From: a virus | DNA: 64,000 nucleotides | IMG/VR virus record: IMGVR_UViG_3300030102_006951 | Coordinates: 64,001 to 128,000 of that record | Direction: 5' to 3' (one strand) | Shown: positions 5,477-46,202 of the stretch, piece after piece | Layout: each line of letters opens with the position of its first letter | Position numbering within the stretch: the first letter of the stretch is position 1 | Position numbers and translations under genes: made by a program | Notes under the pieces: model-generated | Seen by the model: the letters and a program-made list of their open reading frames with translations, nothing else | What the model was told of the DNA's origin: nothing | Databases searched by the model: none

Positions 5477-7045
5477 ATGAAGCACGATGATAAATCTACA
5501 GGTCTTTTTTCTGATGAAGAAGAAGGATATAATCTAGAGGAGGAGACTAAATATAAACTGAAGCTGGGCGCAAAAAGCGAACCAGCTTCTTCTGTTTCTG
5601 ATGATGAGGAAGAGTCTTTAGACGTTTTTGATGATGCGGAAGGTGGTGATGAGTTGTCTTTCGGTGATGATAAGGATGCTAAGGGTGATAATGATAAGCC
5701 ATTCGATGATGAACCATTTGATGCTGGAGTTGAGGCTGATGAGGGTGAGGACCCAGAAAAATTTATACAACAACTTGCTGGTAAATTAGGTACATCTCTT
5801 AGGAAGTATAATGACGAGAGAGGTGAACCAGATTTTGATTTAGAAAAATATGCTATTAATAGTGTAATATCTGCTACTCATACGGCTGAAATGGATGAAG
5901 AAGACCAAAAAGATATTATTAAGAAAGTTAAGATGTCTGGTGCTGGTGATGATAATGATGATGTTGACAAAGACTTAGACATGAGTTCTGAAGAAGAGCC
6001 TGAATCGGAAAAAGAATTAAATGAAAAATTTTTAGGTAAATTAAAAAACTTTTCTGCTGGAGTATTGGCAACGTTGGGTATTCAAGAGTATGGATGGAAG
6101 ATTTTTAACAGCATAACTAGTATAATAGCTAACAAATTACCAGAAGATAAAGCGCAAGAATTTTCGGACACAATTCAAAGTGCTGTAGATTACTTGGTAA
6201 ACTCAAATTTTGTTGGTGAAGGCTATACTGATAATGAACTTGATGAATTATTTAAAAAAAAATTAAGTAAGGATACTATTGAGTTACAAGGTGATGAGAT
6301 TAATAGATTAAAAAAAAAGTTTCCAGGTATAACTGATAAGGAAATTGCGGATATGTTATTAGACCCAAAAGCTAAGGCTGACGGAATTACTAGTGATGTT
6401 TTTTTGACTAGAGAGTATGATTTGGGGGAAGGTTATTACGAGGAGTCTTGGTCGGACCCAATGGAGTTAAAAGAGGGTACTGAGATTTCTGATGATTTGA
6501 GGTATCACCTAGATAATAATATTTCTTTAGGTGAGAGTGTATTTAGATATGGTTCAGATAAGTATGTTGAATTGTGTAGTGAGGTTAAGGATTTAAGAGA
6601 AAAAGAATTAATTAATCTTAATGAAAATGATGAGAAGTTACTTGAAGATTTTACTAATCAATCTATTATTATAGAGGGTGAAACAATTCTTTTAAACCTT
6701 ATTATTGAAGATAATGGTGAATATATTTTAGAGGGTGATAAGTACAAGGGTAAAAAAACCAATTCACCAACTAGGGGTGCTGGTGGTGGAAAGGCGTATA
6801 AGGTATTTGTACCTGGATGTGCCAAAGAAACTAAGTCAAATCCAAGAGGTATTAAAAAAATAACATTCGGTTCTGGTGGGCTAAAGGCTAAATTAACTAA
6901 TAGTGAGGCTAAGAAATCTTATAATGCTAGACACGGTTGTTCTAAAGGTAAACATAACGATAAGTGTAAGGCTGGATACTGGTCATGCAGATTACCTAGA
7001 TATGCTAATAAGCTAGGTTTGTCTGGTGGTGGTACTTGGTGGTAA
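5477..7045 (+). CDS. modular head-associated protein (acidic N-terminal part, basic Cys/His C-terminal module)
   Basis: C-terminal KKITFG..KKSYNARHGC..KAGYWSC module of the kind seen in small T4-like phage proteins; many xxE motifs. Confidence 0.65.
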   Translation: MKHDDKSTGLFSDEEEGYNLEEETKYKLKLGAKSEPASSVSDDEEESLDVFDDAEGGDELSFGDDKDAKGDNDKPFDDEPFDAGVEADEGEDPEKFIQQLAGKLGTSLRKYNDERGEPDFDLEKYAINSVISATHTAEMDEEDQKDIIKKVKMSGAGDDNDDVDKDLDMSSEEEPESEKELNEKFLGKLKNFSAGVLATLGIQEYGWKIFNSITSIIANKLPEDKAQEFSDTIQSAVDYLVNSNFVGEGYTDNELDELFKKKLSKDTIELQGDEINRLKKKFPGITDKEIADMLLDPKAKADGITSDVFLTREYDLGEGYYEESWSDPMELKEGTEISDDLRYHLDNNISLGESVFRYGSDKYVELCSEVKDLREKELINLNENDEKLLEDFTNQSIIIEGETILLNLIIEDNGEYILEGDKYKGKKTNSPTRGAGGGKAYKVFVPGCAKETKSNPRGIKKITFGSGGLKAKLTNSEAKKSYNARHGCSKGKHNDKCKAGYWSCRLPRYANKLGLSGGGTWW

Positions 7046-7057
7046 AATATAATTGAT

Positions 7058-8497
7058 ATGGATAGGTTACAAAATTATATGTTTTTTGAGAATCTAGAGC
7101 AAATCTCTAGAGATATTAATAAAATAATGTCCTTGGATAAGGAGCAAATTGATTCTATAATAACTAATGGGCATGACTGGGCTGGTGAACATATAACAAC
7201 AGCTAAAGATGATATTGAAGAGGTTACTAATTTTTTATTAAGTAATACTAAAGAAAATAAACCATACGGTGAAGAAATTGATGAGAACGGTATCATTAGA
7301 AGAACTTTCTATGAGAATGTCGATGAATCTGAACTAGAGTGGCATAGAGATAAAGAAGATAGAATCGTTCTTCCTATTAATGAAAATGATTGGTCAATTC
7401 AATTTGATAATGAATTACCTAAGAAGTTAAATGTAAACGAAGAGTTCTTTATACCAAAAGAAACTTTTCATAGAGTTATTAAAGGTTCCACAGACTTAGT
7501 TGTTGAAGTTATAGAAACTGAATTCGAAGAGGATGAGTATGAGCTTATTGAAGTATATGAAACTTATGAAGTTATAGAAGAGGGTAAAAAGAAAAAAAAG
7601 AAGAAAAAAAAGAAAAAGAAGTCGGAAGCTAAAAAAGATGCTTGCTATTATAAGGTTAAGGGTAGATATGAGGTTTGGCCTTCAGCGTATGCCTCTGCTG
7701 CGTTATCAAAATGTAGAAATGTTGGTGCCGCTAACTGGGGTAATAGTACTGATGAATCTGAATTAGATGAAGCTAAGAAAAGAAAACTAACAGCTAAACC
7801 AAGTTCTGAAAAAAACCTAGGCGACTGGTTCGCTAGAAAAGGTGGTGGTTGGGTAGACTGTAACACTTGTAGAAAGGATTCTAAGACTGGCAGAAAGAAA
7901 TGTAAACCTTGTGGTAGAAAAGAAGGTGAGAAAAGAGCTAAGTACCCAGCTTGCAGACCAACACCAGCCGCTTGTTCCACAAAGGGCAAAGGAACAAAGT
8001 GGGGAAAGAAGTCTAAGAAGAATGAAAGTTTGGATAATTCAGAAAAAAATCATATATTTGACGAAAATTCAAATATGAAGGATATTATATTACATAATTT
8101 ACATGAAACGACTAAACCAACTCCAGTTAGAGAAGAACCAGCGGTTGTTCCAGAAAGGGAGAAGTCACCATCACCAAGAAGGAGAAGGATATGGGAAACT
8201 AAACCATCTGTTAAGCCGAATCCTAAAATGGAGGAGGGTAAGATAGTTAACACTTTGGAATTAAATGACCTTGAGGCTAAATTAGACGTCATTATTGATG
8301 GCAAACTGGTTAAAAACATTAGTTTTGAAAATACTGGAGAATGTGTAGTTGAACCTATGGCCTATGATGAAGAGTGGGTTTACAGTTATGTCGGAGAACA
8401 TAATGGTAAAGAATATTCAGTTGGTGTGGGCTTTTTTGGTCACCCAGATTATAACTTAGAGATTTCAGATATTGGAGATTATGTAGAGGAATTATAA
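7058..8497 (+). CDS. modular protein: helical module, cupin-like module, poly-Lys, Cys-rich basic modules
   Basis: WHRD..IPKETFHRVIKG (cupin-like); K12 run; KKDACY..WPSAYAS; GGGWV..KPCGR..YPACRP. Confidence 0.65.
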   Translation: MDRLQNYMFFENLEQISRDINKIMSLDKEQIDSIITNGHDWAGEHITTAKDDIEEVTNFLLSNTKENKPYGEEIDENGIIRRTFYENVDESELEWHRDKEDRIVLPINENDWSIQFDNELPKKLNVNEEFFIPKETFHRVIKGSTDLVVEVIETEFEEDEYELIEVYETYEVIEEGKKKKKKKKKKKKSEAKKDACYYKVKGRYEVWPSAYASAALSKCRNVGAANWGNSTDESELDEAKKRKLTAKPSSEKNLGDWFARKGGGWVDCNTCRKDSKTGRKKCKPCGRKEGEKRAKYPACRPTPAACSTKGKGTKWGKKSKKNESLDNSEKNHIFDENSNMKDIILHNLHETTKPTPVREEPAVVPEREKSPSPRRRRIWETKPSVKPNPKMEEGKIVNTLELNDLEAKLDVIIDGKLVKNISFENTGECVVEPMAYDEEWVYSYVGEHNGKEYSVGVGFFGHPDYNLEISDIGDYVEEL

Positions 8498-22793: not shown

Positions 22794-24044
22794 ATGGGTA
22801 GATTATTAATAATCTTATTTATTTGTTTTATAAATATAAATGGTTTTGGTCAGTTAAAATGTGGAACTGATGAATATAATAGACCATTCATAAGACAATA
22901 TCCCGAAAAATACGATAAGATAGAAAAAGATATTCAAAACTATCTTAGAAACCCAAAGGTTAAATCAGATGGTACTTATGTCATACCAGTTGTATTTCAT
23001 ATTGTGTATAATCACTGGAAAGAGAACCTTAACGACAGTGTTATTATTCAACAATTAAATGTATTAAATGATAGGTTTAATTTAAGAAACGCTGATACTA
23101 TACTATTAACCGATACACTACAAAATTGGAAGGGTAATTTTAAAATTACATTTGAATTGGCCCATTTAGACCCAGATGGTTATCCAACAACTGGTATTAC
23201 AAGAACTTATACAAATGTTGGTGAATTTTCATATTGGAGTAATCCAGTCAAAAAGGCAAGTCAGGGTAAAGCGGGCTGGCCGAATGACAGATATCTTAAT
23301 ATTTGGGTTTGTGACCTTTATGACGGGCTTATGGGTTATGCACAGTTTCCTGGTGGAGAAGACTGGTCGGACGGAGTGGTTATAGATTGGCAAAGTGTTG
23401 GTGATAGAGTTTATCCTTGGACTTATTCAATATATGATAAATGGGCTAAGGGTCACGTGTTAGTGCATGAAATAGGTCATTGGTTAAACCTTAAACACCC
23501 ATGGGGTAATTATGGGCCTTGTGGTGATGACCATATTCCAGAAACTGGGTTACAGGATGGACCTATTTACCCAAGTGCAGAATGTCCAGATACTCTATTT
23601 AGTACTTGCGACACACCAGAGAGGATATTTGTAAAACACTATATGGATTATGTTGGTGCGGATTGTATGTGTACGTTTACAAAAAATCAAGTAGTTAGGG
23701 GGATAGCCTCTATGGAGACATATAGACAAGACTTATTAAATAATTACGTCCCCAAACCAAATGTGACTGGTTTTGAAAACACTATGGTTAGACCAACATA
23801 TACTAAGGGTAGAGTCGTAATTGAGTTTCCGAAATACGAAGGTAAATTAGAAATAATGGTATTTGATATGATTGGTAGGTTAGTTTATAAAACCACAACT
23901 ACACATCCATTTATTGATTTTAAATTAAATATGGGTAATGGTAGTTACTTAATAGATATAATTAAAGACGAACGAAGGGTATTCCAGGAAAAAATAATTA
24001 TTAATTCTGCATCTCCTTATGGGGCTAATTTTTTAAATAATTGA
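22794..24044 (+). CDS. M43 (pappalysin/ulilysin-like) zinc metalloprotease with signal peptide and T9SS-like C-terminal domain
   Basis: Signal peptide ..NGFG/Q, Cys-switch CGT, IPVVFH, YLNIWV, GYAQFP, HEIGHWLNLKH, Met-turn YMDY; CTD-like VFDMIGRLV..GSYLI..KIII. Confidence 0.88.
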   Translation: MGRLLIILFICFININGFGQLKCGTDEYNRPFIRQYPEKYDKIEKDIQNYLRNPKVKSDGTYVIPVVFHIVYNHWKENLNDSVIIQQLNVLNDRFNLRNADTILLTDTLQNWKGNFKITFELAHLDPDGYPTTGITRTYTNVGEFSYWSNPVKKASQGKAGWPNDRYLNIWVCDLYDGLMGYAQFPGGEDWSDGVVIDWQSVGDRVYPWTYSIYDKWAKGHVLVHEIGHWLNLKHPWGNYGPCGDDHIPETGLQDGPIYPSAECPDTLFSTCDTPERIFVKHYMDYVGADCMCTFTKNQVVRGIASMETYRQDLLNNYVPKPNVTGFENTMVRPTYTKGRVVIEFPKYEGKLEIMVFDMIGRLVYKTTTTHPFIDFKLNMGNGSYLIDIIKDERRVFQEKIIINSASPYGANFLNN

Positions 24045-24061
24045 AAAAATTATTTATTATA

Positions 24062-24283
24062 TTAGTTAGATTTTTCTTGTATATCGGATATTTTTTTTAT
24101 AACACTTTTGGGATTTGACTTATTACTAAAAAATTCAACAAATGTGTGTGTATAGTATCCTGTATTACCATGTTCTCTTTGGACCTTCTCCATAACAATT
24201 CTTTTTTCCATAGAAATATAATAATCTCTAATATCATGTGTGGTATGGATAGTTTCAATATGTGTTAATTCATTTTCAATCAT
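24062..24283 (-). CDS. hypothetical protein
   Basis: ORF track; likely start at the ATG at 24283 (MIENEL), just after a TATATTTG element. Confidence 0.5.
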   Translation of the reverse strand: MIENELTHIETIHTTHDIRDYYISMEKRIVMEKVQREHGNTGYYTHTFVEFFSNKSNPKSVIKKISDIQEKSN

Positions 24284-24354
24284 AACACAAATATATATAT
24301 AAAAAATGAGACATACAACAGTATACCTCATTTTGTAAAAATTTTAATTTTTAT

Positions 24355-24465
24355 TTAGCAATCACAACATGCACAATCACATGATTTACTACAATTACAT
24401 TTCATACAGTTACATGCTTTTTGGCACTTACAATTTTCACAGTTACAATTTTGTCGGTTACGCAT
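24355..24465 (-). CDS. metallothionein-like Cys-rich peptide (36 aa, 13 Cys)
   Basis: Manual translation MRNRQNCNCENCKCQKACNCMKCNCSKSCDCACCDC; repeated CxC, no aromatic residues; starts 23 nt after the stop of the co-oriented upstream gene. Confidence 0.75.
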   Translation of the reverse strand: MRNRQNCNCENCKCQKACNCMKCNCSKSCDCACCDC

Positions 24466-24488
24466 AATTATTAATTTTAATTTAATTG

Positions 24489-24764
24489 TTATTTACAAAG
24501 TCTAGAGGCTATTTTATGGGTTGCGGTATTAAGTAAGTCTTCATCATTGGTTGCCTCATCATTTATATCAGATTTTAATTTATTTAGTATTCCTTGTATA
24601 TTATCCCAATCTTTTTGTTCAATATGTGATTTTTTTAATAAAGTTATTAGTTCATCATAAGTGTTAACACTTAAATCATTACATATGTTCCACACGCCTG
24701 AACTTGAGTTCTTAGTTGATTCTATAAGGAATTTTCTTACTCTATTTTTAATTAAGTTTTTCAT
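24489..24764 (-). CDS. hypothetical (candidate internal head protein)
   Basis: N-terminus MKNLIKNRVRKFLIES. Confidence 0.65.
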   Translation of the reverse strand: MKNLIKNRVRKFLIESTKNSSSGVWNICNDLSVNTYDELITLLKKSHIEQKDWDNIQGILNKLKSDINDEATNDEDLLNTATHKIASRLCK

Positions 24765-33480: not shown

Positions 33481-34329
33481 TTAAATATTAAATTTTCGTT
33501 TTAAGAAAATATTTATTCTTCTAATTAATTTTATCTTTTTATTTTTTCTTTTTGATTTGTTTTTAATAGAATCGATTTTTACATGATTTTTATTATCTAT
33601 CATGTTATCTGTATTATCATAATTATTAAGAATTTTAGATATGATTGGGTTTCTAACTATGTCTTCGATTTTAAATTCAAAGAACCCAATCTCAGATATA
33701 TTTCTATGTCTATTCATTGCATCATATAACCCGCTTTGTTTTACATTTTTATATCTATCTGATTGGTCTAGGTCTCCAGATAATACGTACTTTGAATTTT
33801 CACCTATTCTGGTTAAAATTGTTTTTACTTGTTCTGGTGACATGTTTTGGACTTCTTCCACAATAACTACTGAATTATCAATTGTCTTGCCTCTTATGAA
33901 ACCTAGTGGTTCAACTTTAATTATCTCTAATTCTTCTAATTTCTGCCTATTAGATTTACCAATTATTTTATCAATAATATCTAATGATGAAGCAACGTGA
34001 GGTTCCATTTTTTCTTTCATGTCACCTGGTAGATGACCTAGCTTTTCCCCAGCTTCTATGGCTGGCTTTGTAATTATTAATGTTTTATATGGGGTTGTTT
34101 TGTTTTGTATTAATTCAATACCTCTTGCAATTGCTATATAACTTTTACCTACACCAGCTGGTCCAGCAGCAATTATAATTTCTTTTTCATTGATTAAATT
34201 TGCAAATTCTTTTTGTTTTATGTTTTTACATTTTAACCTGTGTTTTTTTGTGAGAACTGAATCTATAACCCTATTTTGTTTTTTGGTTTCTAAAATTGAT
34301 GATGGGGCTCTTCTTTGTGTTTTTGGCAT
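33481..34329 (-). CDS. phoH: PhoH-family ATPase
   Basis: GPAGVGKS, EKLGHLPG, FIRGKT, EEVQN, LTRIGENSK, GDLDQSD, DIVRNP. Confidence 0.92.
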   Translation of the reverse strand: MPKTQRRAPSSILETKKQNRVIDSVLTKKHRLKCKNIKQKEFANLINEKEIIIAAGPAGVGKSYIAIARGIELIQNKTTPYKTLIITKPAIEAGEKLGHLPGDMKEKMEPHVASSLDIIDKIIGKSNRQKLEELEIIKVEPLGFIRGKTIDNSVVIVEEVQNMSPEQVKTILTRIGENSKYVLSGDLDQSDRYKNVKQSGLYDAMNRHRNISEIGFFEFKIEDIVRNPIISKILNNYDNTDNMIDNKNHVKIDSIKNKSKRKNKKIKLIRRINIFLKRKFNI

Positions 34330-34332
34330 ATA

Positions 34333-35307
34333 TTACCTTTTTGACTCTTTATTTTTGTATTTTTTATCCAACTCTTCTAGTCGGTACTTTTCTAATAAAT
34401 ATTCGCCATTTATGATAACTTCACATTTAAATTTAATTATATAGTGCCCATCAAACTCAACTACCTTGTCAAATTCTTTTATATCGTATTGAAATAAATA
34501 GAAATCTTTAACACCAATGTCTTTATATGTTGTAAACCCAACACCTTTGATGTCTAACATACTTGACTTTTTTGGGGTTTTTAAACACTTTTTTAACTCA
34601 GATATAAATAACCTACTTTTTCTATCATACTCATCTGGATACTTACTAACATAAAACTCTATTAACCTTTCATTATCATTTATAATTCTAATATTCATTT
34701 TATTTGTAAATGATTCAATTTCAAATTTACTCCTTGAATCCCTAATTACTTTAATAGGTTTTTCAGCTTTTATAGTTGAATGGTATTTTTCGCTATCTAT
34801 TTCTCCTAGTGTTGCTGATGTGGTATCTTTATTTGATATGATTGATTCTGACCTTTCATTAGAATTGTATTCACTTATATTTTTATTTGATAATATATCA
34901 TCGCTACTTAGTGTTATTTCTTTATTATCAATAACCATCTCAAGTGGGTAGTTGTCTTCTTTGTCTAGTTTAATCTTTTTCAAACCGCTTTTAATTGTTG
35001 CTGAAGTACTTTTTTTAACATTTAAGTCATGATAGCCTTCACTATCTGTTGATAGTGATTTTATCATCATCTTATCCGAAGCCTCTAATATTTTAAATAG
35101 TCTCCACCTTAGCTCTTTAACTTCTTGAGTTATTTCACCCCTATTTAAAGAGTCTGCAAGTGTACCTTGATTGTGTCTTTGGAATTTGCCGATAGCACCT
35201 TCCAATTCCTCTGATGATTGTCCTAGTAAATCTTTTTCAACGCTAGCGGTAGCTAAGGCTATAGTTGCCATCTTTCTTCTTAGCCAATTAACAGTCTTTT
35301 TTATCAT
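34333..35307 (-). CDS. hypothetical protein
   Basis: 324-aa ORF. Confidence 0.75.
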   Translation of the reverse strand: MIKKTVNWLRRKMATIALATASVEKDLLGQSSEELEGAIGKFQRHNQGTLADSLNRGEITQEVKELRWRLFKILEASDKMMIKSLSTDSEGYHDLNVKKSTSATIKSGLKKIKLDKEDNYPLEMVIDNKEITLSSDDILSNKNISEYNSNERSESIISNKDTTSATLGEIDSEKYHSTIKAEKPIKVIRDSRSKFEIESFTNKMNIRIINDNERLIEFYVSKYPDEYDRKSRLFISELKKCLKTPKKSSMLDIKGVGFTTYKDIGVKDFYLFQYDIKEFDKVVEFDGHYIIKFKCEVIINGEYLLEKYRLEELDKKYKNKESKR

Positions 35308-35318
35308 AAAATTTTATT

Positions 35319-36407
35319 TTAACGTTTATTCACTAGTTCCCTAGTATTTGGTTCAGAACCAAATTCTCTACGATAAACAGTTTTTCCGTTATCTGGACTT
35401 TCATAGACGTAAACTTTATTTTTCACTTGTTCATCTATCCATTCATAAGTTTTTTTCATACCTTCTATAAGTGGTTGAGAGACTGCCCACCCTATTTTTT
35501 CATTATAAAGTTTATTGTCAGAATTTCTACCTCTAACACCTAACGGACATTTAAAACCATATTTTTCAATAAAATCTTGTCCGTCTATATTACTAATTTT
35601 AACATCTTTATTTGATATGTCAATAGCCATTTGTGCGAGTTCATTAATAGTTACCATTTCTTCAGAACCTATATTGACAGGGCCTATAAAATCTGATTCC
35701 ATAAGACGAAGCACTGCTTCTACACATTCGTCTACATATAAAAATGAACGGGTCTGTTTTCCATCACCCCAGACTTCTACCGTTTTGTTTGATTCTGATA
35801 CTTTCCTACACATAGCTGCTGGAGCTTTTTCCTTACCCCCTGTCCACGTACCCATAGGTCCAAATATATTATGAAATCTTGCGATTCGAACATTTAAACC
35901 ATAGTTACGACTAAAGGATAAAAATAATCTTTCAGAAAATAGTTTTTCCCATCCATATTCCGAATCTGGGTTGGCGGGGTAAGCTGATGATTCTTCACAA
36001 TTAGGACTATTAGAATCAAGTTGATTATGTTCTGGATACATACATGCGGAAGAGGAGTAGAAAACTTTTTTTACTTTCTTTTTAGTACACTCATGAACAA
36101 CATTCAAATTAATTAATGCGGAATTGTGCATGACGTTAGCATCATTTTCACCTGTAAATATATAACCAGCACCGCCCATATCTGCGGCTAATTGATAAAC
36201 CTCGTCTACATCATCACCTATAACTTCTGACACTACTTTAGCATCCCTCAAATCCCCTTTAAAAAATTTGTCACATATGTCATCGTGATTGAAGAATTCA
36301 TGATTTTTTATATCACAAATTATTACTGTATTACCTTCTTTTTTTAATCTTTTCGCAAGATGACCTCCGATAAAGCCACCCCCACCTAGAACTACTATTT
36401 TTTTCAT
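35319..36407 (-). CDS. GDP-mannose 3,5-epimerase-like NAD-dependent epimerase
   Basis: GGGGFIG, LAADMGG, SSACMYPE, YGWEK, RFHNIFGP, EKAPAAMCRK, GDGKQTRSF, GVRGRNSDN; matches GME motifs including the catalytic Cys and Lys positions. Confidence 0.85.
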   Translation of the reverse strand: MKKIVVLGGGGFIGGHLAKRLKKEGNTVIICDIKNHEFFNHDDICDKFFKGDLRDAKVVSEVIGDDVDEVYQLAADMGGAGYIFTGENDANVMHNSALINLNVVHECTKKKVKKVFYSSSACMYPEHNQLDSNSPNCEESSAYPANPDSEYGWEKLFSERLFLSFSRNYGLNVRIARFHNIFGPMGTWTGGKEKAPAAMCRKVSESNKTVEVWGDGKQTRSFLYVDECVEAVLRLMESDFIGPVNIGSEEMVTINELAQMAIDISNKDVKISNIDGQDFIEKYGFKCPLGVRGRNSDNKLYNEKIGWAVSQPLIEGMKKTYEWIDEQVKNKVYVYESPDNGKTVYRREFGSEPNTRELVNKR

Positions 36408-36413
36408 ATTTTA

Positions 36414-36442
36414 ATTATACTATTAAAATTACATAAAGTAAA
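36414..36442 (-). promoter_or_regulatory. sigma70-like promoter
   Basis: TTTACT-N17-TATAAT just upstream of the epimerase. Confidence 0.45.
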
Positions 36443-36553
36443 GATTGTATTTACAATATTACATCAGTATCCTAAATAGATTATACCCCATTAATAAATT
36501 TTTCACAACTTTCTCAGGGCCATTCTGGTCTTGTGAGATATAAATTTGCAATG

Positions 36554-37177
36554 TTACTTCACCCATATCATTCCCCATTTATCTTTTCTGTTTATGTCTA
36601 TATCGTTGTGTATTTCACACTCTTCCCACGATGTATATATTTCTGGTTTTTTTAAATATTCATCACCATATATAACACCAAAATCAGTATATCCAATAGA
36701 TTTTAAATGTTCACAAGTTTTATTAATGTTAACATATTGTTCTTCAGCCCATTCAAAACAAATTTCTTTCTGCTTATTTGACAGTCCCTTTATAACTTCT
36801 AATTCATACCCTTCAACGTCAATCTTAATTAAGTCTGGTGTTTTGTGGTTAATAACTAAATCATCTAAGCTTATAGTGTTTTTAACAATAGTAGAGTTCC
36901 ATTTGTAATTATTAGAAAATCTAGAATTATTAATCCAATCAATACTAGCGGTAGATATTGTGTCTGCATTGCTTATGTGAAATTGAATTTTTTTATTACT
37001 TTCAGTAGAAACTAAATCTTCAATTATAACCACATTTTTATTAAAAAATTTCTTTTTTAACTTATTATATAACTCTATATTTGGCTCAACTGAAATAACT
37101 TTGCAATTTGGATATAATTCTAAACATTTATCTGTAAAATTACCCACGTTTGCACCTACATCAAAAATCAAATCCAT
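36554..37177 (-). CDS. FkbM-family methyltransferase
   Basis: FDVGANVG, VEPN, IKIDVEGYELEVIKG. Confidence 0.9.
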   Translation of the reverse strand: MDLIFDVGANVGNFTDKCLELYPNCKVISVEPNIELYNKLKKKFFNKNVVIIEDLVSTESNKKIQFHISNADTISTASIDWINNSRFSNNYKWNSTIVKNTISLDDLVINHKTPDLIKIDVEGYELEVIKGLSNKQKEICFEWAEEQYVNINKTCEHLKSIGYTDFGVIYGDEYLKKPEIYTSWEECEIHNDIDINRKDKWGMIWVK

Positions 37178-37179
37178 AA

Positions 37180-37809
37180 TTAATTATTTTTTATATAAAA
37201 AGCATCTCCCCATTCATAGGGTGTCATTTTTATTTCAACTCTTTTAAATCCAAATTGAGACAAATATTCATCTATCTCTTCTATTTTGGCGCACTTTTTG
37301 TAAACCTCTCCAGAATTAACTTCAGTATAAATGTAGTCTATTTTTTCTAAAGAATTTTTCATACCTTTCAATGCTAACAATTCAGCACCTTGTATGTCTA
37401 AGTTTAAAAAATTATAATCATAAGGATTGAATCCTTCCTCTTCAAAAAAAGTGTCAATTTTTTTAGTTTTAACAATTTTTTTATCAACTACGGTTATGTG
37501 GGGGTGATGCTTTGTATGTTTTCCCATCTCTAAAATTGAAGAAGACTCCCCATTGCTAGCCACATGGAAATCAATCTCTTTACCGTCTATATCAGATGCA
37601 GCAAAACAATAAGATTTATGTAATGGGTATTTATTAATAATCAGACTTAATTCTTTAAACGTATCAATGTCGGCCTCTACCCACAAAACATCTTTGACAC
37701 CAGACTGTACATAAGAGTCTGCTTCTTGAGCATGGTGAGCGCCAACGTGTAATATTCCCCTTGGTGTTATTCCGTACTTATTTACTATATCTTTAAATTT
37801 AATTAGCAT
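37180..37809 (-). CDS. FkbM-family methyltransferase
   Basis: HVGAH, SSSIL, LNLDIQGAELLALKG, YTEVN, WGDAFY. Confidence 0.9.
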   Translation of the reverse strand: MLIKFKDIVNKYGITPRGILHVGAHHAQEADSYVQSGVKDVLWVEADIDTFKELSLIINKYPLHKSYCFAASDIDGKEIDFHVASNGESSSILEMGKHTKHHPHITVVDKKIVKTKKIDTFFEEEGFNPYDYNFLNLDIQGAELLALKGMKNSLEKIDYIYTEVNSGEVYKKCAKIEEIDEYLSQFGFKRVEIKMTPYEWGDAFYIKNN

Positions 37810-37810
37810 A

Positions 37811-38479
37811 TTAATTGTATTTTTCTAAAATTTGTTTTAAATCATATTTCTTTGTATTAAAGTTGCTGCCCTTATGTATTCTATGTAACACTAACTCTTC
37901 TTTTATATTCATAAACTTAGCCCCGTGTTTCATTAACCTTAACCAAAAATCAAAGTCTTCAATACCAGATAATTTTTCGTCCCACCCATTAATTTTTTTA
38001 GCAATGCTTGTTTTTAAAATAGCAGAACTATTTGCAATTTGATTATCACCCATCATTGAGCGTGAAAATATTTCATCATGTTCTGCACACAAATTTGGTT
38101 GTCCTGTTATTATTTCAGATTCATTACAGTAAAATATTTTAGAACCTATAACATCGTATTTCCCAGTTTTAGAAAACTTATTTTGTATTTCAAGTTTTTT
38201 TGGTAACCATATATCGTCATCATCCTGAATTGCAATCCATTCACCCCTAACTTCTTTTAATAATTTGTTTAATGTTTTTGATTTACCTTTATCTAACCCA
38301 TAATCAAAAACTCTAATTCTTTTATCGTTATAATTTTTAACAATATTTTTTGAATTGTCGTTTGTTCCATTAAAACCAATAAGTAATTCCCAATCTGTAT
38401 ATGTTTGGTTTATTATTGAATCAATGGATTTACTAATATATTTTTCACCGTTGTATGTTGCTAATAATATTGATATCAT
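37811..38479 (-). CDS. GT2 glycosyltransferase
   Basis: SILLATYNGEKYI, QDDDDIW, EDFDFWLR. Confidence 0.9.
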   Translation of the reverse strand: MISILLATYNGEKYISKSIDSIINQTYTDWELLIGFNGTNDNSKNIVKNYNDKRIRVFDYGLDKGKSKTLNKLLKEVRGEWIAIQDDDDIWLPKKLEIQNKFSKTGKYDVIGSKIFYCNESEIITGQPNLCAEHDEIFSRSMMGDNQIANSSAILKTSIAKKINGWDEKLSGIEDFDFWLRLMKHGAKFMNIKEELVLHRIHKGSNFNTKKYDLKQILEKYN

Positions 38480-38490
38480 AAATTACTTAT

Positions 38491-39309
38491 TTAAATTACA
38501 ATCCAGTTTGTTTCGTATATATCTTTAACATCTTTAGGTCCTTTAGGTCCAAACCATATTCTGGGTGCAATTACCTTATTATTGTGTGGGCATAAATAAG
38601 CTCCCCACCAGCTGAAACTACTATTAGCTATAATGTGATTATTAGACTGTACTAGTAAACATAAATCATCTATTTCATTTTTAAAAGGTGAATAATATAT
38701 ATTTTTAGCTTTAAAGTTATCTTTGCACCACTCAATATCGTCTGATACAAATATAAATTTAGTATTATTATCACCTATAATATCCATACTTTTTTTATAA
38801 TAATCAACGCTACATGTTGGGTGGTAACCTGGGTTATTAAGGTAATCACCTCTACGAACATGAACAGATGTTATATTATTATCATTTCCAATATTATTTA
38901 CAAAATCACAAACTCTATCTACCCTTTCTTTTGAGAAATGAAAAAGTTTTGATATTTCATTTTTAAAATCGTGAAAATACTTTGAGCTTTGGAAGTAGCC
39001 GAATATTTCCAACCCCTCCGACCATTTTTTAGTGGGTGCAATTTCTGAATAAGAAAAACCATTTTCTTTATATTTGTGTTTTAAATTACCAATATTTTGG
39101 TTTGGGATATTTTTAAAGAAGTCATTTTTGTATGTGTTCGACACATTTCCCTGTAATTGTGTATCACATTTATTAAAATCAAACGTACATTTAACACTTT
39201 TATAGTCTTCTGGGTATAACTCTTTTAACTTCATGGTTAAACCCTTTGCGGCTGCTATCTGAAACATTTGGTTGCCGATGCCTCCCATTAATTGTGCTGT
39301 AATAATCAT
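38491..39309 (-). CDS. GT11 alpha-1,2-fucosyltransferase-like
   Basis: GGIGNQMFQ, GYFQS, HVRRGDY, SDDIEWC, IIANSSFSWWGAYL. Confidence 0.92.
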   Translation of the reverse strand: MIITAQLMGGIGNQMFQIAAAKGLTMKLKELYPEDYKSVKCTFDFNKCDTQLQGNVSNTYKNDFFKNIPNQNIGNLKHKYKENGFSYSEIAPTKKWSEGLEIFGYFQSSKYFHDFKNEISKLFHFSKERVDRVCDFVNNIGNDNNITSVHVRRGDYLNNPGYHPTCSVDYYKKSMDIIGDNNTKFIFVSDDIEWCKDNFKAKNIYYSPFKNEIDDLCLLVQSNNHIIANSSFSWWGAYLCPHNNKVIAPRIWFGPKGPKDVKDIYETNWIVI

Positions 39310-39316
39310 AATTATA

Positions 39317-39994
39317 TTAATTTCTAACTTCTTCGTGGTTTTTATCTAATGCTATTAATTTCTTATCAAATGGTATATTCATACTTTCACCATAACAATA
39401 ACTGGGGTTAAGAATCTTAGTTGGTGTGTTGTCAAAGAAATATCTATTCATGTGACTTTCATCATGCCACTTAGCGATAATACCATTTTTAAAATCAATG
39501 TCAATATTATCTGCTAAGTTTTTAGCCATTTTTAAATACTCTTCACTTGTACCGCCATTAAAACCACCAGCAAAATACTGATTTTGGTCGTTTGGGTCTA
39601 TGTAAGCTAATGAATTTGGGTTGGTTTCTGGAGTTCCTTTACTACCATAGAAACCAGGGTGTTGTGTTGCAACTCTTTCTGAAATTATTTCATCACCAAC
39701 CTCACTAACGAATTTCATATCGGCATCTGAATAAAATAAATAATCCATTTCAGATAATTCTTTTCTTGACTCGTTAAATATTTTATATCTACCTAGTGTC
39801 ATCCATGGCCAATCTTTATGTTCAACATTTATTTTAACCACATTTCTTTCAGTGAATAACTCAACATCTTCATTGGTAAATACAAAGTATGTAACCTCTT
39901 GATTTTTAAGTAAAAATTTATCAGCGCTAGTTATGAGTGGTTGTAAAAATCTAATATACTTGTTTGTTGCTATAATTAATAAACCTATTTTCAT
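39317..39994 (-). CDS. GT6 (ABO/alpha-1,3-Gal(NAc) transferase-like) glycosyltransferase
   Basis: IATNKY, YFVFT, WP..TL.RY, DAD (DXD), HPG, FAGGFNGG, WHDESHMNRY, LNPSY, LDK. Confidence 0.9.
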   Translation of the reverse strand: MKIGLLIIATNKYIRFLQPLITSADKFLLKNQEVTYFVFTNEDVELFTERNVVKINVEHKDWPWMTLGRYKIFNESRKELSEMDYLFYSDADMKFVSEVGDEIISERVATQHPGFYGSKGTPETNPNSLAYIDPNDQNQYFAGGFNGGTSEEYLKMAKNLADNIDIDFKNGIIAKWHDESHMNRYFFDNTPTKILNPSYCYGESMNIPFDKKLIALDKNHEEVRN

Positions 39995-40710
39995 GATTGT
40001 ATTTTTTTATATGGTGTCATATTTCTTATTTTAATGGCGATATCATTAACAAGTGCTAAGTCTACCTTGTGGTCATTAAGTGGATTTTCTTCATTATAAA
40101 TATAATTGATATCATCCATAAATTTATAGTGTTCTTGTCCAGCCATTTCTAGCATTGGGTACATGAATGATAAATCACCAGTTACTTTCCAATATACACC
40201 ATTTTCATCTTTTAAATCGTCTTGCTTTATATTTCTCCACAGAAATGTTCTCCACGTTCTTATATGTGACGCTGTAAATCTAGACTTGCGTAAGTTAGGT
40301 GTGATAATTTGTTCTGAAGAAAATCCAGGATTTCCATTAGAATATCTGAAGCTGCCGTTGGCAATCCATACTTCTGGGTCTGAATAGACCTCAGCTATTC
40401 TAGAAAGTGTTTTAGAATCTGGTAACCAATCGTCACCATCAACCTCAACGATTACTTCGTCATCAGAAATTTTGTCGTTATATCTAATAACTTGGTCATA
40501 ATTACCTGGTTGGTATAATTTTTCCTTATTCTCTATAAGAATGAATCTATCGTCACCATTAATCATGTTTTTAACTTTATCTACAGACCCATCAGTACTG
40601 ATATCATCCGTAATATAACATGTGAAACCTTTATAATTTTGGCCCATAAGTGAGCTAATACATTTTTCAACATAATCTTCTGCATTATATAATGTTGTAA
40701 TTATTATCAT
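39991..40710 (-). CDS. GT2 glycosyltransferase
   Basis: YNAEDY, DDISTDGS, VDGDDWL. Confidence 0.88.
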   Translation of the reverse strand: MIIITTLYNAEDYVEKCISSLMGQNYKGFTCYITDDISTDGSVDKVKNMINGDDRFILIENKEKLYQPGNYDQVIRYNDKISDDEVIVEVDGDDWLPDSKTLSRIAEVYSDPEVWIANGSFRYSNGNPGFSSEQIITPNLRKSRFTASHIRTWRTFLWRNIKQDDLKDENGVYWKVTGDLSFMYPMLEMAGQEHYKFMDDINYIYNEENPLNDHKVDLALVNDIAIKIRNMTPYKKIQS

Positions 40711-41501
40711 AATTCTAAAACTTTAACCCACTCTTTAATGATTTCTTCATTCGTTAAATCTTTAGTGTCGTGGTTAGTTGCGTGATTACCAAAAAATTTA
40801 GTGCCATTAGTTTCGCACTCGTCCTTAACCAGGCTGGCTACTTCTGATTTAGAAGAAAGGTAAACAGCGTCTATCATATTGTACATCTTTTCTTTATCAG
40901 ATATAAACCCATATTCAATTATCTTGTCTTTATTGTCTTCTATTATTGGTTTTACTTCGTTTTCATAAAATTGTTGGTCTGTTACATTACCAAATATATA
41001 TACTTTATCATACCCGTCATTAATTGCTCTAAGGATTGATATATGTGTTTGTTTGTTTTTATCTATTGAACCAATAACTCCAGCGCATTTATCAGCACCT
41101 TCTTCCTTAATGCTATTGGGTAGTGGTTCTTTTAAATTTGGTATTGTTACATAAGAACCCGTATATGCACTATGGTATTTTCTTTGTTTTTCATTAAGAA
41201 AAATACATTCATCCCAAAACGGAACAACTCTACTAACTTCATATACGTCTTTTTCGTGACAATTTAAGACTACTTTTTTAACTGGTGGTCTATCTGGTAA
41301 AGCTAAGAAGTGTATGATAAGTGTGTCATCAGGTTCTGGTTTAAAATTATCCAATTTATCTGATTTACACTTATCTAAGTGCCAATCATGCGGACCATAC
41401 ATTTTAGCTTCGTATCCAGCGTCATTTAATGCGTTTGTTAGTCGTATAAATGCAAATGTGGAACCACCTTTATTACTCCAACCAGTAAGTATTTTTATCA
41501 T
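40707..41501 (-). CDS. GT-B-like glycosyltransferase
   Basis: GGSTFAF, IGSIDKNKQ, YLSSKSEVASLVKDE (divergent E-x7-E). Confidence 0.65.
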   Translation of the reverse strand: MIKILTGWSNKGGSTFAFIRLTNALNDAGYEAKMYGPHDWHLDKCKSDKLDNFKPEPDDTLIIHFLALPDRPPVKKVVLNCHEKDVYEVSRVVPFWDECIFLNEKQRKYHSAYTGSYVTIPNLKEPLPNSIKEEGADKCAGVIGSIDKNKQTHISILRAINDGYDKVYIFGNVTDQQFYENEVKPIIEDNKDKIIEYGFISDKEKMYNMIDAVYLSSKSEVASLVKDECETNGTKFFGNHATNHDTKDLTNEEIIKEWVKVLEL

Positions 41502-42583
41502 GATAAAACTTTTTGATATACGTTTATTATTTCTTCAATATCGCCATCCACAGTAACGCAAGGTAATTCTGGATATAATTTTTTAAGGTCAGATGTTTTT
41601 TCAGTATCTGTGGTGTGTGTTAAATGGAATTTTACCTCACTCATTCTATATAACTTATTTGGTTCTGAAGTTACAGGTCCGTTGGGTGTGTTTACACCCC
41701 ATTTTCCATCTCCAATTCTGTAACCTGGGGGTTCGTTTATTGGTACGAATTTAACTCGCTTAAACATTAGTCTTTTAAAGTTGTTTTTATCCGAATCTAA
41801 TATAGGGGTTGAAACAGTGACATTATGTTTATCTTTTTTAAGTTTATCAACTAATTCAATAGTTTCACCAATACTGCTACCGACAACTAAAACGTTGTAT
41901 TTTTCCTTTCCAGTGAATACTTTATCTATTTTTACTGGTAAGTTTTCTTTAAACTTATTAGCGAACTCTTTTCTGTTGTCTTCCCATTCTTGATTTGTTT
42001 CACCAACCGATTTATGATTTACTCTAACATTAGTATGAACTCCAATTTTAACCCCAGATAAATAATTTCTGAAACAAAAATCTACATCATAAAAATGAAA
42101 CCCCTTAACATTTAAATCAAAGTCTTTATTTATTCTACCTCTATGAACACTAAAAAAAACTCCATCTACAATAACAACTTCAGTTATTTCATTTCCTAAA
42201 TCTTCACTATATGAAGATAACCAGGTTTTTCCATTTGATGTATGTGCCACCTTACCATACATTTTTTTCCTATCATCCCACCACCTTCCGCTTTCACTCA
42301 TGTATTTAGTTCCAGCAACTCCAATTATCCCAAATTCTGGATTGTCTTCAAAAAGCTTGGTTATTTTTTTGGCTATTTGTTTGGTTTCAATTGTTATGTC
42401 ATCATGACAAAAAACAATGATATCATTTTTAGCTTCCTTAATCGCTTTATGATAGTATTTTGTTAACCCTTCACCTTTGTTTATATATTCTATTATCTCA
42501 ACTTTTGGGTTACCACATGCTTTTGATAAATGCTCCTTATGTTCTGGTTTAGATTCTTTTGTACAATAAACTATACTAATCAT
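41498..42583 (-). CDS. GT-A-like glycosyltransferase with a C-terminal extension
   Basis: IVFCHDD, GIIGVAG, VDGVF, FHFYDVDF. Confidence 0.8.
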   Translation of the reverse strand: MISIVYCTKESKPEHKEHLSKACGNPKVEIIEYINKGEGLTKYYHKAIKEAKNDIIVFCHDDITIETKQIAKKITKLFEDNPEFGIIGVAGTKYMSESGRWWDDRKKMYGKVAHTSNGKTWLSSYSEDLGNEITEVVIVDGVFFSVHRGRINKDFDLNVKGFHFYDVDFCFRNYLSGVKIGVHTNVRVNHKSVGETNQEWEDNRKEFANKFKENLPVKIDKVFTGKEKYNVLVVGSSIGETIELVDKLKKDKHNVTVSTPILDSDKNNFKRLMFKRVKFVPINEPPGYRIGDGKWGVNTPNGPVTSEPNKLYRMSEVKFHLTHTTDTEKTSDLKKLYPELPCVTVDGDIEEIINVYQKVLS

Positions 42584-43263
42584 TTTATAATATTTTTATA
42601 TTTTTCATTATATATTTTTAATGCCTCTTCATAAAATTTTATTTCACCTGAAAGTAAATCCTCTAATTTATTCTTATCTTCTTCGATTATTTCTTTTTTA
42701 TTCTTGGTTTTATTAGTCGTTTGATATTTTGGAATCCAATTATTAGTTACACAACACAAATCAATAAATTCATTATAATTTTCAGTAAACCCAAAAATAA
42801 ATTTATCGTCTTTAATATTTTTTAATGCAATTTGTAATTTAGATTCATAAGGTAGGTCTTTTGGTGCACCAGAAACATGATTTAATTGATAAAATAATTG
42901 ACTTGTGTCTTCATTGAACCAGTCTATAATATTTTTGTTTTCATTTATCCAACCTCTGTCTATTGCGTATCGGTATGCTGAAATGGTTCTGGAAACTGGA
43001 TGTCTAAGCATAGCAATATATTGATAGTCTTTAGTTTTAAGGTATTCGTGTAGGCCATAAGTGAAGTGTTCCGAAAATAAATCATAGTGTTCTAGGGTTG
43101 CCATTCCATTTGGTTCTGATTCTAAAAATTTACCAATGTCTTTGACATCGGTTAAGTACCATAATTTACCATAACCCCAATAATGTTTTTTAATATTTGA
43201 TTCTAGAAAGTGTCTAAAGCTAGTTCCAGCGGTTTTACCTATATGTAAAAATATATGTTTCAA
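42580..43263 (-). CDS. sulfotransferase family protein
   Basis: FLHIGKTAGTS (5'-PSB loop) and LRHPVSRTISAY (3'-PB); TTG start. Confidence 0.82.
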   Translation of the reverse strand: MKHIFLHIGKTAGTSFRHFLESNIKKHYWGYGKLWYLTDVKDIGKFLESEPNGMATLEHYDLFSEHFTYGLHEYLKTKDYQYIAMLRHPVSRTISAYRYAIDRGWINENKNIIDWFNEDTSQLFYQLNHVSGAPKDLPYESKLQIALKNIKDDKFIFGFTENYNEFIDLCCVTNNWIPKYQTTNKTKNKKEIIEEDKNKLEDLLSGEIKFYEEALKIYNEKYKNIIK

Positions 43264-43427
43264 GATTTATTTTTATTAAACTTTATGGTTTTCAATTCAT
43301 TAACTAAGTTTTTAAGTTCTTTTTTTAAACCAGATAGTGTCCAACCATCATAGTATTCCCCCATAGCAATTTCAGTTTTCAACCATGAAATTCTTTTTTT
43401 AATTTTTTCTATCCTTTCTTTTATCAT
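43260..43427 (-). CDS. small hypothetical protein (55 aa)
   Basis: Manual translation MIKERIEKIKKRISWLKTEIAMGEYYDGWTLSGLKKELK...; its TGA overlaps the next TTG start. Confidence 0.55.
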   Translation of the reverse strand: MIKERIEKIKKRISWLKTEIAMGEYYDGWTLSGLKKELKNLVNELKTIKFNKNKS

Positions 43428-43557
43428 ACCTTAAATTTAAAAAATAATTTCTAATTTTAGAACCTAAATCCTGGTCATTCGGGTATTCCTTAACTAAGTT
43501 TATTAAATCTTTTAAGTGCTCTTTCTCAGTTTTTTTTAATTTATACATTATACTCAT
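43399..43557 (-). CDS. small hypothetical protein (52 aa)
   Basis: Manual translation MSIMYKLKK..LVKEYPNDQDLGSKIR.. Confidence 0.55.
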   Translation of the reverse strand: MSIMYKLKKTEKEHLKDLINLVKEYPNDQDLGSKIRNYFLNLRYDKRKDRKN

Positions 43558-43559
43558 TT

Positions 43560-44627
43560 TTATTTATTAAATCTTTTAAACGAATTATCACTAATTCTTA
43601 TAATATTTGCTTTATTAACAAATTCCTCTAGTGTATTTGAATCTGAATAACTCATTGCTGAACGTAAATATGACTTAAAATTATCAACCCAACCACTGAG
43701 AGTGTATTCTATCTTTCTATATGTGACTATACCTTCAGATGTTTTTAATACGGCATTTCCCCACTTTCTTTGAACCTCTTTTGTACTCATCCCTCTGAAC
43801 TTTTTGTACACTGGTATTGAGATATCTCTACATTTTTTAGCACCATATTGAGTTATGGGTACTCTTCTGAATATATAATTTTTACCACATGACTCTAAGG
43901 CTTTATTAAAAATACTACCAATCATTACATAATCAGCACCAAGAGCTAGAGCTTTTATTACGTCTGAATAGTTTTTCATACCCCCATCGGCAACTATTTT
44001 AGCTGGGTTGTCTAAGCTCAATGATTTATAGTAACACTCTCTAACTAGACTAGCCATTGGGAACCCAACGCCAGTTTGCTGTGTTGTTAAACATCCACCA
44101 CCATTTCCTATACCCACTCTTATATAGTCAGCCCCAGCATTTGATAATAAACCATACGTTTCAGGGTTGGCTACATTGCCTACCATTAATAATAATTTAT
44201 CACCCCATATTTCTTTTGATTTAGACACTGATTCAACCATTTCTTTGGTATGACCATTTGCAGTATCTATTAACACCTTAAATTGTGTTGGTGGGGTAGT
44301 GGATGATTTTATATATGACTCTAAAATTTTTTCTCTTATTATAAATGTGTTTATAAACTCCTTAAGTGAGTATGATTTAAAACTTGAATCGTTACCTTCT
44401 TCACCTCTTGGTAAACATATATTAATACCTAGCTCTTCAAATTTTTTGTAGTTGGTGTTATCAATAACGGTATCCATTGGTGCGGTGAATAATGGTAATT
44501 TACCATTTTCATCTATAATATTTATTCTAGACCTAGTACTAATATCACTTACTTTAGATGGTTCTATTAATACATCATTAAAATCTAATTTTAATGTATT
44601 CTCATTAAAAAAAGTATTCAAACCCAT
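43560..44627 (-). CDS. GMP reductase / IMPDH-family oxidoreductase
   Basis: [57 protein letters not shown]; no CBS insert. Start moved to 44627. Confidence 0.85.
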
Positions 44628-44634
44628 ATGTTTT

Positions 44635-45237
44635 TTATTTAATTCCTGTTGAGCCAAATCCACCATCACCTCTATTTGTTTGATTTAGGCTTTCAACCTT
44701 TGTAAAATTTACTAATGTCTTTCCCACCAAGCTCGATAAGACACCTTGAGCTATTCTATCACCATTTTCAATTATAAATGGTTCTTTACCATGATTTATA
44801 AGTATAATCATAACTTCACCTCTGTAGTCAGAATCTATAGTTCCTGGTGAATTTAATACTGTAACACCGTGTTTTGCCGCTAAACCACTTCTGGGTCTTA
44901 CCTGTAATTCCAAGTGTGTTGGTAGTTCAAAGTAAAGACCTGTTGATATCATTGTTTTTTCACCTGGTCCTAGTGTTACTACTTCATTTATATTAGCCCT
45001 GAAATCAAATCCAGCTGACCCCTCTGTAGAATATTCTGGGTCTGGGTTATTTGATTTATTAATAAATTTAATAGAGTATCCAATACTGAATTCATTTTTT
45101 GTTACATCGGTTTCTGGTAAGATATACTTATCTAATTGTGAATACTGTTTAGTGAATTCATCTAAATTATACCCGCCTTCTTCATTTATCGCTTTTAATA
45201 AATTTTCAAGCATTTCAATTTCCTTAAAATCTGACAT
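44635..45237 (-). CDS. dut: trimeric dUTPase
   Basis: [38 protein letters not shown]. Confidence 0.95.
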
Positions 45238-45254
45238 ATAATATATTAATTATG

Positions 45255-45809
45255 TTATTTTTCTGACATTATTGCGACCATGTTTGCAGTTCTTAATAAT
45301 GCGGATAATTTTTCACCTAAAGTTGTCATTGGTCTTTGTGAAAAATCGCTATTATAGTTATATATTGCAAAAACCTCATCTTCGTTTAAATTTATACCAC
45401 ATTTAAGTGCATAGTAAATTGAACGCTCAGCTGTAGACATACTTAATAGTTCGTCATTAAATGTATACATTTCTCCTCTATTATCTTTATGCCACTTAGA
45501 TGTTTGTTCTGAATACATTTTAGCTTTACCAATTTGGTGAATTAAACACACCCTAATTATGTTTTCTGAGCTAACTTGCTTATCTTCTGGCAAAGCCTCA
45601 TTAATATTTAAAGCGTACTTAGTTGTGTTCAATATGTGTTGTATTAAACCACCATCATAGGCACCGTAAAGGTTTGTTGTTGTAGTGCATGGAGCATCAA
45701 TAAACTCTTTTCCGAGCATATTCATTAAATCGTCATTTACGACATCGTATTTAAGTCCAGTATCATTAAATTTTTTTGCGTTTTTTAAAATTTTTTCTTT
45801 TGATAACAT
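45255..45809 (-). CDS. HD-fold-like protein with a degenerate HD motif
   Basis: AP....GAYDGGLIQH and LIHQIGK (HD replaced by HQ). Confidence 0.55.
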   Translation of the reverse strand: MLSKEKILKNAKKFNDTGLKYDVVNDDLMNMLGKEFIDAPCTTTTNLYGAYDGGLIQHILNTTKYALNINEALPEDKQVSSENIIRVCLIHQIGKAKMYSEQTSKWHKDNRGEMYTFNDELLSMSTAERSIYYALKCGINLNEDEVFAIYNYNSDFSQRPMTTLGEKLSALLRTANMVAIMSEK

Positions 45810-45832
45810 AAATATTTTTTTTAATTATTTGT

Positions 45833-46180: not shown

Positions 46181-46202
46181 AAACACAAATTTAAAACAAT
46201 TT

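Follow-up and report, generated by a model that had tools for sequence, protein, structure and literature searches.

Does a run of 36 codons in a viral genome, short enough to fall below the length limits of gene finders, encode a real peptide, and if so, is this peptide a metal binder of the metallothionein type? The DNA analysed here (hereafter the window) spans 64,000 nucleotides, corresponding to bases 64001-128000 of a 158-kb IMG/VR record with a CheckV completeness of approximately 48%, and has a GC content of about 31%. The first-pass annotation drew attention to a 36-residue ORF containing 13 Cys and devoid of aromatic residues and His, and exactly such an ORF was located on the minus strand, reading from 24465..24355. 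The Cys residues (positions 7, 9, 12, 14, 18, 20, 23, 25, 29, 31, 33, 34, and 36) make up 36% of the peptide and are arranged in C-x-C, C-x-x-C and C-C motifs, while the number of Phe, Trp, Tyr and His residues is zero. By comparison, Cys accounts for 1.0% of the residues in ORFs of at least 200 aa in the window. When every frame was examined, the runner-up among the stop-free stretches of 36 codons contained at most five Cys, and when the window was simulated 30 times with a first-order Markov model, the maxima lay at 5-8 Cys versus 13 in the micro-ORF. Since the other stretches and the simulations reach only these values, the Cys content of the micro-ORF is not due to chance. The features discussed below are compiled in Table 1.

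Table 1. Positions of the micro-gene, its subregions, its neighbors and its 36-aa orthologues. Positions without a contig name refer to the window.
Feature	Position	Strand	Description
Cys-rich micro-gene (P0001)	24355..24465	minus	36 codons + TAA stop, 13 Cys
N-terminal extension, residues 1-17	24415..24465	minus	one decayed unit + one intact module with linker
Nine-Cys core, residues 18-36	24358..24414	minus	stop directly after last Cys
A/T-rich 23-nt spacer	24466..24488	minus	from upstream-gene stop to ATG
Upstream co-oriented 91-aa gene	24489..24764	minus	conserved more widely than the micro-gene
Intrinsic-terminator-like hairpin + U tract	24297..24334	minus	14 pairs, 4-nt loop
Downstream gene, 73 aa	24062..24283	minus	L002/L069 homologues start at the equivalent inner Met
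M43 (pappalysin-type) Zn metallopeptidase	22794-24044	plus	convergent with the micro-gene
Minus-strand block upstream of the micro-gene	33481-47483	minus	PhoH, nucleotide-sugar epimerase, dehydrogenase, glycosyltransferase
36-aa orthologue	L555:511-621	minus	13/13 Cys kept
36-aa orthologue	L556:1898-2008	minus	13/13 Cys kept

To place the ORF in a comparative setting, 80 viral loci were gathered through the neighboring 469-aa protein. A co-oriented ORF of 24 aa with nine Cys fills the same slot in L002, L069 and L004, which rank within the five most similar loci (75-84% identity), and a DNA alignment of these three with the window revealed that the tail of the upstream gene, the spacer and the position of the ATG are all alike. 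L002 and L069 encode an identical 24-aa peptide from sequences that differ at five nucleotides, 5/5 of the differences being synonymous; the L004 peptide carries five residue changes and retains 9/9 Cys, with four TGT/TGC swaps. A scan of metagenomes using the sequence where the extra module joins the core yielded two marine contigs, L555 (Ga0315315) and L556 (TARA), and these hold the two 13-Cys copies found besides that of the window. The two orthologues differ from the window ORF at 8-10 nt, 3-4 of which are synonymous, and their identity to the window is 91-93% over the ORF versus 78-85% over the flanks. Residue 21, a Met in the window peptide, is Thr in both orthologues and therefore does not represent an internal start; moreover, no in-frame start codon is present between M1 and the nine-Cys core. 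A frameshift fusion to the upstream gene was considered and rejected, as the frame of the peptide is closed by a stop codon 27 nt 5' of the ATG, within the final two codons of the upstream gene. The conservation and synteny proposed as a check on the ORF were borne out by the 36-aa orthologues in L555 and L556 and the 24-aa version in L002, L069 and L004, and based on these comparisons the 36-codon ORF is very likely a real, conserved gene.

The ORF exhibits internal periodicities of 15 nt and 33 nt (P<0.0005 versus codon shuffles) and is missing from gene callers and protein databases, both of which could be accounted for by a DNA or RNA repeat element that is untranslated and open in one frame by accident. 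However, the substitutions are codon-periodic, those between L002 and L069 are synonymous only, all Cys codons are kept though TGT and TGC interchange, and start and stop are fixed across the family described below; an untranslated repeat is therefore scarcely credible. In INPHARED, no match was obtained with the locus (blastn), the peptide (tblastn) or the 469-aa neighbor (tblastn), and a word-based homologue search with the 45-aa stop-to-stop stretch gave no candidates. A profile search with the alignment of the 24-aa relatives returned 0 matches from 1.84 billion representative proteins, because a profile of 24 positions is too short and such ORFs are seldom called.

The distance of 23 nt from the co-oriented upstream gene (24764..24489) to the ATG was confirmed. 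The 91-aa product of this gene showed only sub-threshold matches in Pfam. No Shine-Dalgarno sequence was found in the spacer, 24466..24488, which together with the ATG position is kept in L002, L069, L004, L555 and L556. A terminator-like stem-loop (24334..24303; free energy -12.8 kcal/mol, z -4.3) begins 20 nt past the micro-gene stop. This hairpin is also found in L555 and L556, and its counterpart in L002 and L069, which differs from that of the window by two A-U to G-C double changes, has a free energy of -16.3 kcal/mol (z -6.3). The micro-ORF is the last gene before the hairpin, and conservation of such a structure after its stop indicates that the micro-gene ends a transcription unit. 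That this unit is a late-type operon, as the first-pass annotation had it, was not confirmed: the same minus-strand block has PhoH and sugar genes, and the T4 late-promoter motif is not enriched and has no occurrence near the micro-gene. A T4-type late promoter for the micro-gene was rejected on the same grounds. The genes at 33481-47483 constitute a sugar/polysaccharide-modifying auxiliary cluster within a T4-like phage.

Beyond the hairpin, the downstream ORF had been listed in an 89-aa version (24062-24331, minus strand) that starts within the terminator hairpin, so that an inner Met is the likely start and the product would be 73 aa in length; no family match was found for it. In L004, an epimerase-like gene replaces the 73-aa gene, and the next gene begins 8 nt past the micro-gene stop without a hairpin. 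Judging from this gene order, the 73-aa gene need not accompany the micro-gene. A short ORF with so many codons for one amino acid, located 20 nt 5' of a strong terminator hairpin and of a further gene in the same orientation, could also be a Cys-codon-rich leader that senses Cys-tRNA and controls the terminator before the 73-aa gene through attenuation. The minimum-free-energy fold, however, contains no anti-terminator pairing (the region overall, with a z of -1.1, shows no unusual degree of structure), and the hairpin-free arrangement in L004 and the downstream gaps in the wider family, often just 14 nt among the matches listed, argue against a leader as well. More than 100 loci keep the precise Cys spacing together with several residues other than Cys, which is unlike leader peptides. 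We consider attenuation extremely improbable.

The wider family came to light through a DNA pattern of pure Cys spacing, which was swamped by TGC/TGT simple repeats and served only to surface peptides with nine Cys. Residues 17-36 of the window peptide align without gaps to these phage peptides of 20-23 aa, with up to 71% identity. A scan of IMG/VR with the pattern C-x-C-E-[NK]-C-x-C identified at least 119 stretches, and 94 of the matches listed lie in ORFs of at most 90 aa with at least seven Cys. A second scan, using the Cys spacing of the core (C-x-C-x2-C-x-C-x3-C-x-C-x-C-C-x-C), yielded at least 119 loci, and by our own calculation the expected number of chance matches is far below one. 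Among the matches listed, 116 of 119 contain exactly nine Cys and 113 of 119 are 20-23 aa in length; 72 of the 119 sequences are distinct, with 67 distinct nine-Cys peptides of at most 23 aa. In the same listed matches, the start Met is located 0-2 residues before the first Cys and the stop directly after the last Cys, and neither these positions nor the Cys count or the length were imposed by the search pattern. The entropy of the free codons, again among the matches listed, is 1.18 at the third position versus 0.80 and 0.80 at the first two; every Cys codon shows T/C wobble. Of 108 loci from this list, 106 have an upstream neighbor in the same orientation, and the median distance to it is 14 nt. 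The window form matches the family in core spacing, terminal stop and tight co-oriented embedding (23-nt gap), and departs from it in having a 17-residue extension and 13 Cys versus 20-23 aa and nine Cys. As read from these alignments, the window peptide belongs to a large family of phage micro-peptides, of which it represents an expanded form with 13 Cys. No paper on this family was found in the literature, and the strict nine-Cys pattern was not found in the Flavobacteriaceae genomes searched (401 sampled).

A second family of phage mini-proteins (33-62 aa, 8-11 Cys, 2-5 His) was also observed, with the motif C-x-x-C-x-x-x-C-H-C ... H ... C-x-C-E-N-C-x-C and often a C-terminal C-x-x-C; examples are L084:4889-5053:+, L083:66-233:- and L141:9507-9692:-, with about 40 more loci among the matches listed, and the family has no Pfam match. 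In the L003 relative, whose 469-aa protein is 77% identical to that of the window, the micro-gene slot is occupied by two small zinc-ribbon-like proteins with paired C-x-x-C motifs (L003:6808-6990 and 6981-7217, plus strand), a different type of Cys-based mini-protein in the same variable island.

A gene whose 433-aa product carries an FAD/NAD(P)-binding (Pyr_redox_2-like) motif at its N-terminus (L481:4557-5855:+) is located 58-134 nt 3' of the nine-Cys gene and, among the matches listed, follows it in 40 of 114 family loci. The protein has no sequence relative in the PDB. This oxidoreductase-like neighbor, together with the C-terminal Cys and immediate stop of the listed family members, would suit the precursor of a modified or secreted Cys-rich peptide, for example a RiPP, a thioether peptide or a disulfide-rich product. 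Yet the peptide is without a leader or signal sequence, the oxidoreductase-like gene is absent from the genome of the window, and no maturase-like neighbor is present in the window, L002, L004, L069, L555 or L556. A gene for radical SAM (PF04055), the enzyme type that matures Cys-rich RiPP precursors of the SCIFF/ranthipeptide kind, was likewise not found in the 158-kb record, itself about 48% complete, whereas 14/14 control genomes were positive. Such a precursor is very unlikely.

Comparison of the orthologues disclosed how the window peptide may have been assembled. Its extension includes an intact extra module of four Cys, C-x-C-x2-C-x-C, and in the decayed first unit, the Cys codons (TGT, TGC) of the 24-aa relatives are matched at positions 2 and 4 by Arg codons (CGT, CGA); position 2 is Gly in L555 and L556. 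The second half of the 24-aa syntenic relatives differs from that of the window peptide. The peptide reads as a series of C-x-C-x-x units of 5-6 residues. For mollusc metallothioneins, modular evolution by gain and loss of Cys modules is described in a published study (PMC7826182). The phage peptide is similar in that C-x-C-x-x units added, repeated or decayed set it apart from its orthologues, and dissimilar in that the units are of 5-6 residues rather than whole domains and the change is seen among closely related phages.

With the gene and its family in place, the evidence leans modestly towards a metal-thiolate-binding, metallothionein-like peptide. In terms of the operational criteria for metallothioneins, the peptide has a low mass (36 aa, below approximately 10 kDa) and the corresponding Cys and aromatic content, and the first-pass view that composition and motifs accord with how metallothioneins are operationally defined (13/36 Cys; no Phe, Trp, Tyr or His) proved correct. 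Equally sound was the distinction drawn from the His-containing SmtA, as evidenced by the lack of His and of any match to the SmtA/BmtA model PF02069. Searches of Pfam returned nothing for the peptide at E<=1 and no metallothionein for ten related peptides at E<=10, under HMMER bias filters that may hide Cys-rich matches; one repetitive relative produced a spurious pentapeptide-repeat match in Pfam-type searches. Neither PF02069 nor PF00131 matched the genome even at E<=10, PHROGs and NCBIfam gave no family match for the peptide and its relatives, and a PDB sequence search with the peptide returned nothing. In the ESM Atlas, weak look-alikes below 0.9 were obtained, the best at 0.83 and a Metallothio_5 cluster at 0.81.

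Modeling with AlphaFold2 from a 70-row alignment resulted in a pLDDT of 54.6, no secondary structure and no stable apo fold, and the predicted absence of an apo fold is compatible with a fold that depends on metal. There is no hydrophobic segment among the 36 residues and therefore no signal peptide, so that the peptide should remain in the reducing cytoplasm. No metal-related gene adjoins the micro-gene in any phage locus examined, and the 158-kb phage record contains no CsoR or CDF gene. No publication on a phage metallothionein emerged from the literature search, in agreement with the earlier statement that no well-characterised phage metallothionein is known; the single phage paper found to use the word does so for a bacterial gene.

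The beta domain of vertebrate and crustacean metallothioneins contains nine Cys around an M(II)3 cluster. Like the phage core, it has nine Cys, C-x-C and C-C motifs and no aromatic residues, and is probably unstructured without metal; the phage core, in contrast, accommodates the nine Cys within 20 residues rather than about 30, is phage-encoded and has no PF00131 match. Fungal Cu metallothioneins of the Neurospora/Agaricus type are about 25 aa in length, with 7 Cys and a Cu(I) cluster. They resemble the phage peptide in their comparable size, single domain and composition of mostly Cys and small polar residues, but Cys spacing and number differ and there is no demonstrable homology. The N-terminus of SmtA includes a C-x-C-E-x-C-x-C stretch that resembles the first module of the phage peptide. 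The SmtA/BmtA metallothioneins (PF02069) form a Zn4Cys9His2 cluster in a 56-aa protein (PMC10119931). These are Cys-rich and of the prokaryotic world, as is the phage peptide with its predicted metal binding; the latter, however, has no His, is shorter and is without zinc-finger-like fold elements.

The pattern C-x-C-E-[NK]-C-x-C, when scanned against one bacterial genome per species, identified about 50 short ORFs rich in Cys, from Alphaproteobacteria, Bacteroidota and mycobacteria. Over 20 aligned bacterial mini-proteins the core C-x-N-P-x-C-x-C-E-N-C-x-C-G-x-x-C-x-C is conserved, and the motif C-x-C-E-N-C-x-C-x3-C-x-C is common to this core and residues 7-20 of the window peptide. Alignment of the phage family with the bacterial set in hhalign gave a probability of 96.7% (E 4e-10), a Cys-inflated score that, like the kinship itself, is partly circular because the bacterial proteins were chosen by a motif taken from this peptide. 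In contrast to the phage peptide, the bacterial proteins carry one more Cys at the N-terminus as well as an N-P turn, are 28-62 aa in length and are chromosomal; they are without database names and are found beside CsoR/CDF, AraC or ECF genes. A gene for a CsoR/RcnR-type repressor (PF02583) is located 4-70 nt away in eight alphaproteobacterial loci, with a ninth about 1.6 kb off, and a CDF cation-efflux pump (PF01545) is encoded near the mini-protein in six. Because the proteins were chosen by that motif, this context supports metal binding by the phage peptide only indirectly.

The alphaproteobacterial loci merit description in their own right. At L250, genes for a Cys-rich protein (L250:1506-1682:+), a CsoR/RcnR repressor (L250:1695-1973:+) and a CDF pump (L250:1993-2883:+) form an apparent operon, and similar CsoR/CDF-linked loci are present in L210, L255, L311, L291 and L300, the proteins being 33-62 aa in length with up to 17 Cys. 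Five relatives, all without names, were found in a set of 5.8 billion proteins. From their sequences and gene context, these proteins look like an unannotated bacterial metallothionein family.

The Bacteroidota relatives have other companions: one sub-family follows an AraC regulator in 14 loci, and a further sub-family precedes an ECF sigma factor in seven, with no canonical anti-sigma gene behind. The two-gene unit L256:4991-5089:+ and L256:5173-5712:+ is an example of a Cys-rich peptide and an ECF sigma factor, and ECF-linked peptides also occur in L252, L278, L243, L271, L315 and L266 (33-60 aa, 11-20 Cys); these may act as very small anti-sigma factors that sense metal or redox state, or else be the product of a regulated stress gene. 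The AraC- and ECF-linked sub-families are indicative of regulation and not directly of metal handling, and it is from them that the main rival to a metal-thiolate peptide derives, namely a small regulator or inhibitor which, by means of one or two structural Zn or a thiol redox switch, would bind a protein of the host or the phage, for instance a sigma factor, without storing metal. Tiny host-takeover proteins are often encoded by phages, and both the pairing of same-motif Bacteroidota peptides (33-60 aa) with an ECF sigma factor and the AraC linkage speak for this function. On the other hand, 13 Cys in 36 residues far exceeds what a structural Zn site needs, the peptide lacks His as well as a hydrophobic core or interaction surface, and no partner gene is conserved beside the phage gene across lineages; the bacterial adjacency, moreover, fits equally well with the peptide as a regulated stress gene. 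A regulator is rather unlikely in our assessment; the precursor, attenuator and untranslated-repeat alternatives are minor.

If the peptide is a metal-thiolate binder, which proteins might it serve? The first-pass annotation suggested a supply of metal to a nearby Zn protease and to many Cys-rich virion proteins. The protease does exist, as an M43 metallopeptidase, but the supply role did not stand, since L556 has the 36-aa gene without the protease (115 nt where the window has 1336), and genes other than M43 adjoin the micro-gene in L002, L004 and L069. A functional tie between the two genes was rejected for these reasons. Absence of the M43 gene from a relative as close as L556 marks it as a recent arrival, inserted between the capsid module and the cluster that includes the micro-gene. 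As for Cys-rich virion proteins, the window does not provide for many, as ORFs of at least 100 aa have a median Cys content of 0.62% and a maximum of 3.8%.

The tail of the M43 peptidase contains a sub-threshold match to the T9SS C-terminal sorting domain Por_Secre_tail (E 5.5e-4), which implies secretion via the type IX system of a Bacteroidota host. The window also encodes a T4-type Gp23 capsid protein, the sole query with distant cultured relatives in INPHARED, the best being from a Flavobacterium phage (41.6% identity). The T9SS tail and the capsid relative both point to Bacteroidota, which is probably the host group of the phage.

In the metal-thiolate model that we favor, the ORF would be translated as an accessory micro-gene, carried by a marine T4-like phage that is uncultured and probably infects a Bacteroidota host, and would be transcribed last in its unit, before the conserved terminator. 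The product would be a 36-residue cytoplasmic peptide of little intrinsic structure that folds upon binding several soft metal ions via its 13 thiolates, in the manner of a metallothionein of very small size. Known Cys-to-metal ratios would suggest, by analogy, approximately 4 Zn(II)/Cd(II) or approximately 6-9 Cu(I) per peptide. Its architecture of a nine-Cys core, an extra four-Cys module and a decayed module would have arisen from gain and loss of 5-6-residue C-x-C-x-x units, and the presumed benefit to the phage would be buffering of Zn or Cu, or relief of thiol redox stress, during infection. More broadly, we propose, tentatively and with the balance tilted slightly towards doubt, that marine phages own an as yet undescribed lineage of the smallest known metallothionein-type peptides (20-36 aa) that retunes the metal or thiol economy of the infected cell, with fast addition, duplication and decay of 5-residue C-x-C-x-x units and the 13-Cys form as a higher-capacity variant of the nine-Cys core.

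The locus demonstrates that micro-ORFs of 20-40 codons can be verified through comparative genomics alone. The 9-, 9'- and 13-Cys orthologues in one slot represent a natural series for relating cluster size to Cys modules, and if metal binding applies, these peptides would be the shortest natural metal-thiolate scaffolds for bioinorganic study. They would likewise constitute a hidden, abundant class of phage metal-handling genes that annotation pipelines have overlooked because the genes are below ORF length cut-offs, and metal/thiol buffering would then join the auxiliary functions that phages bring to ocean bacteria.
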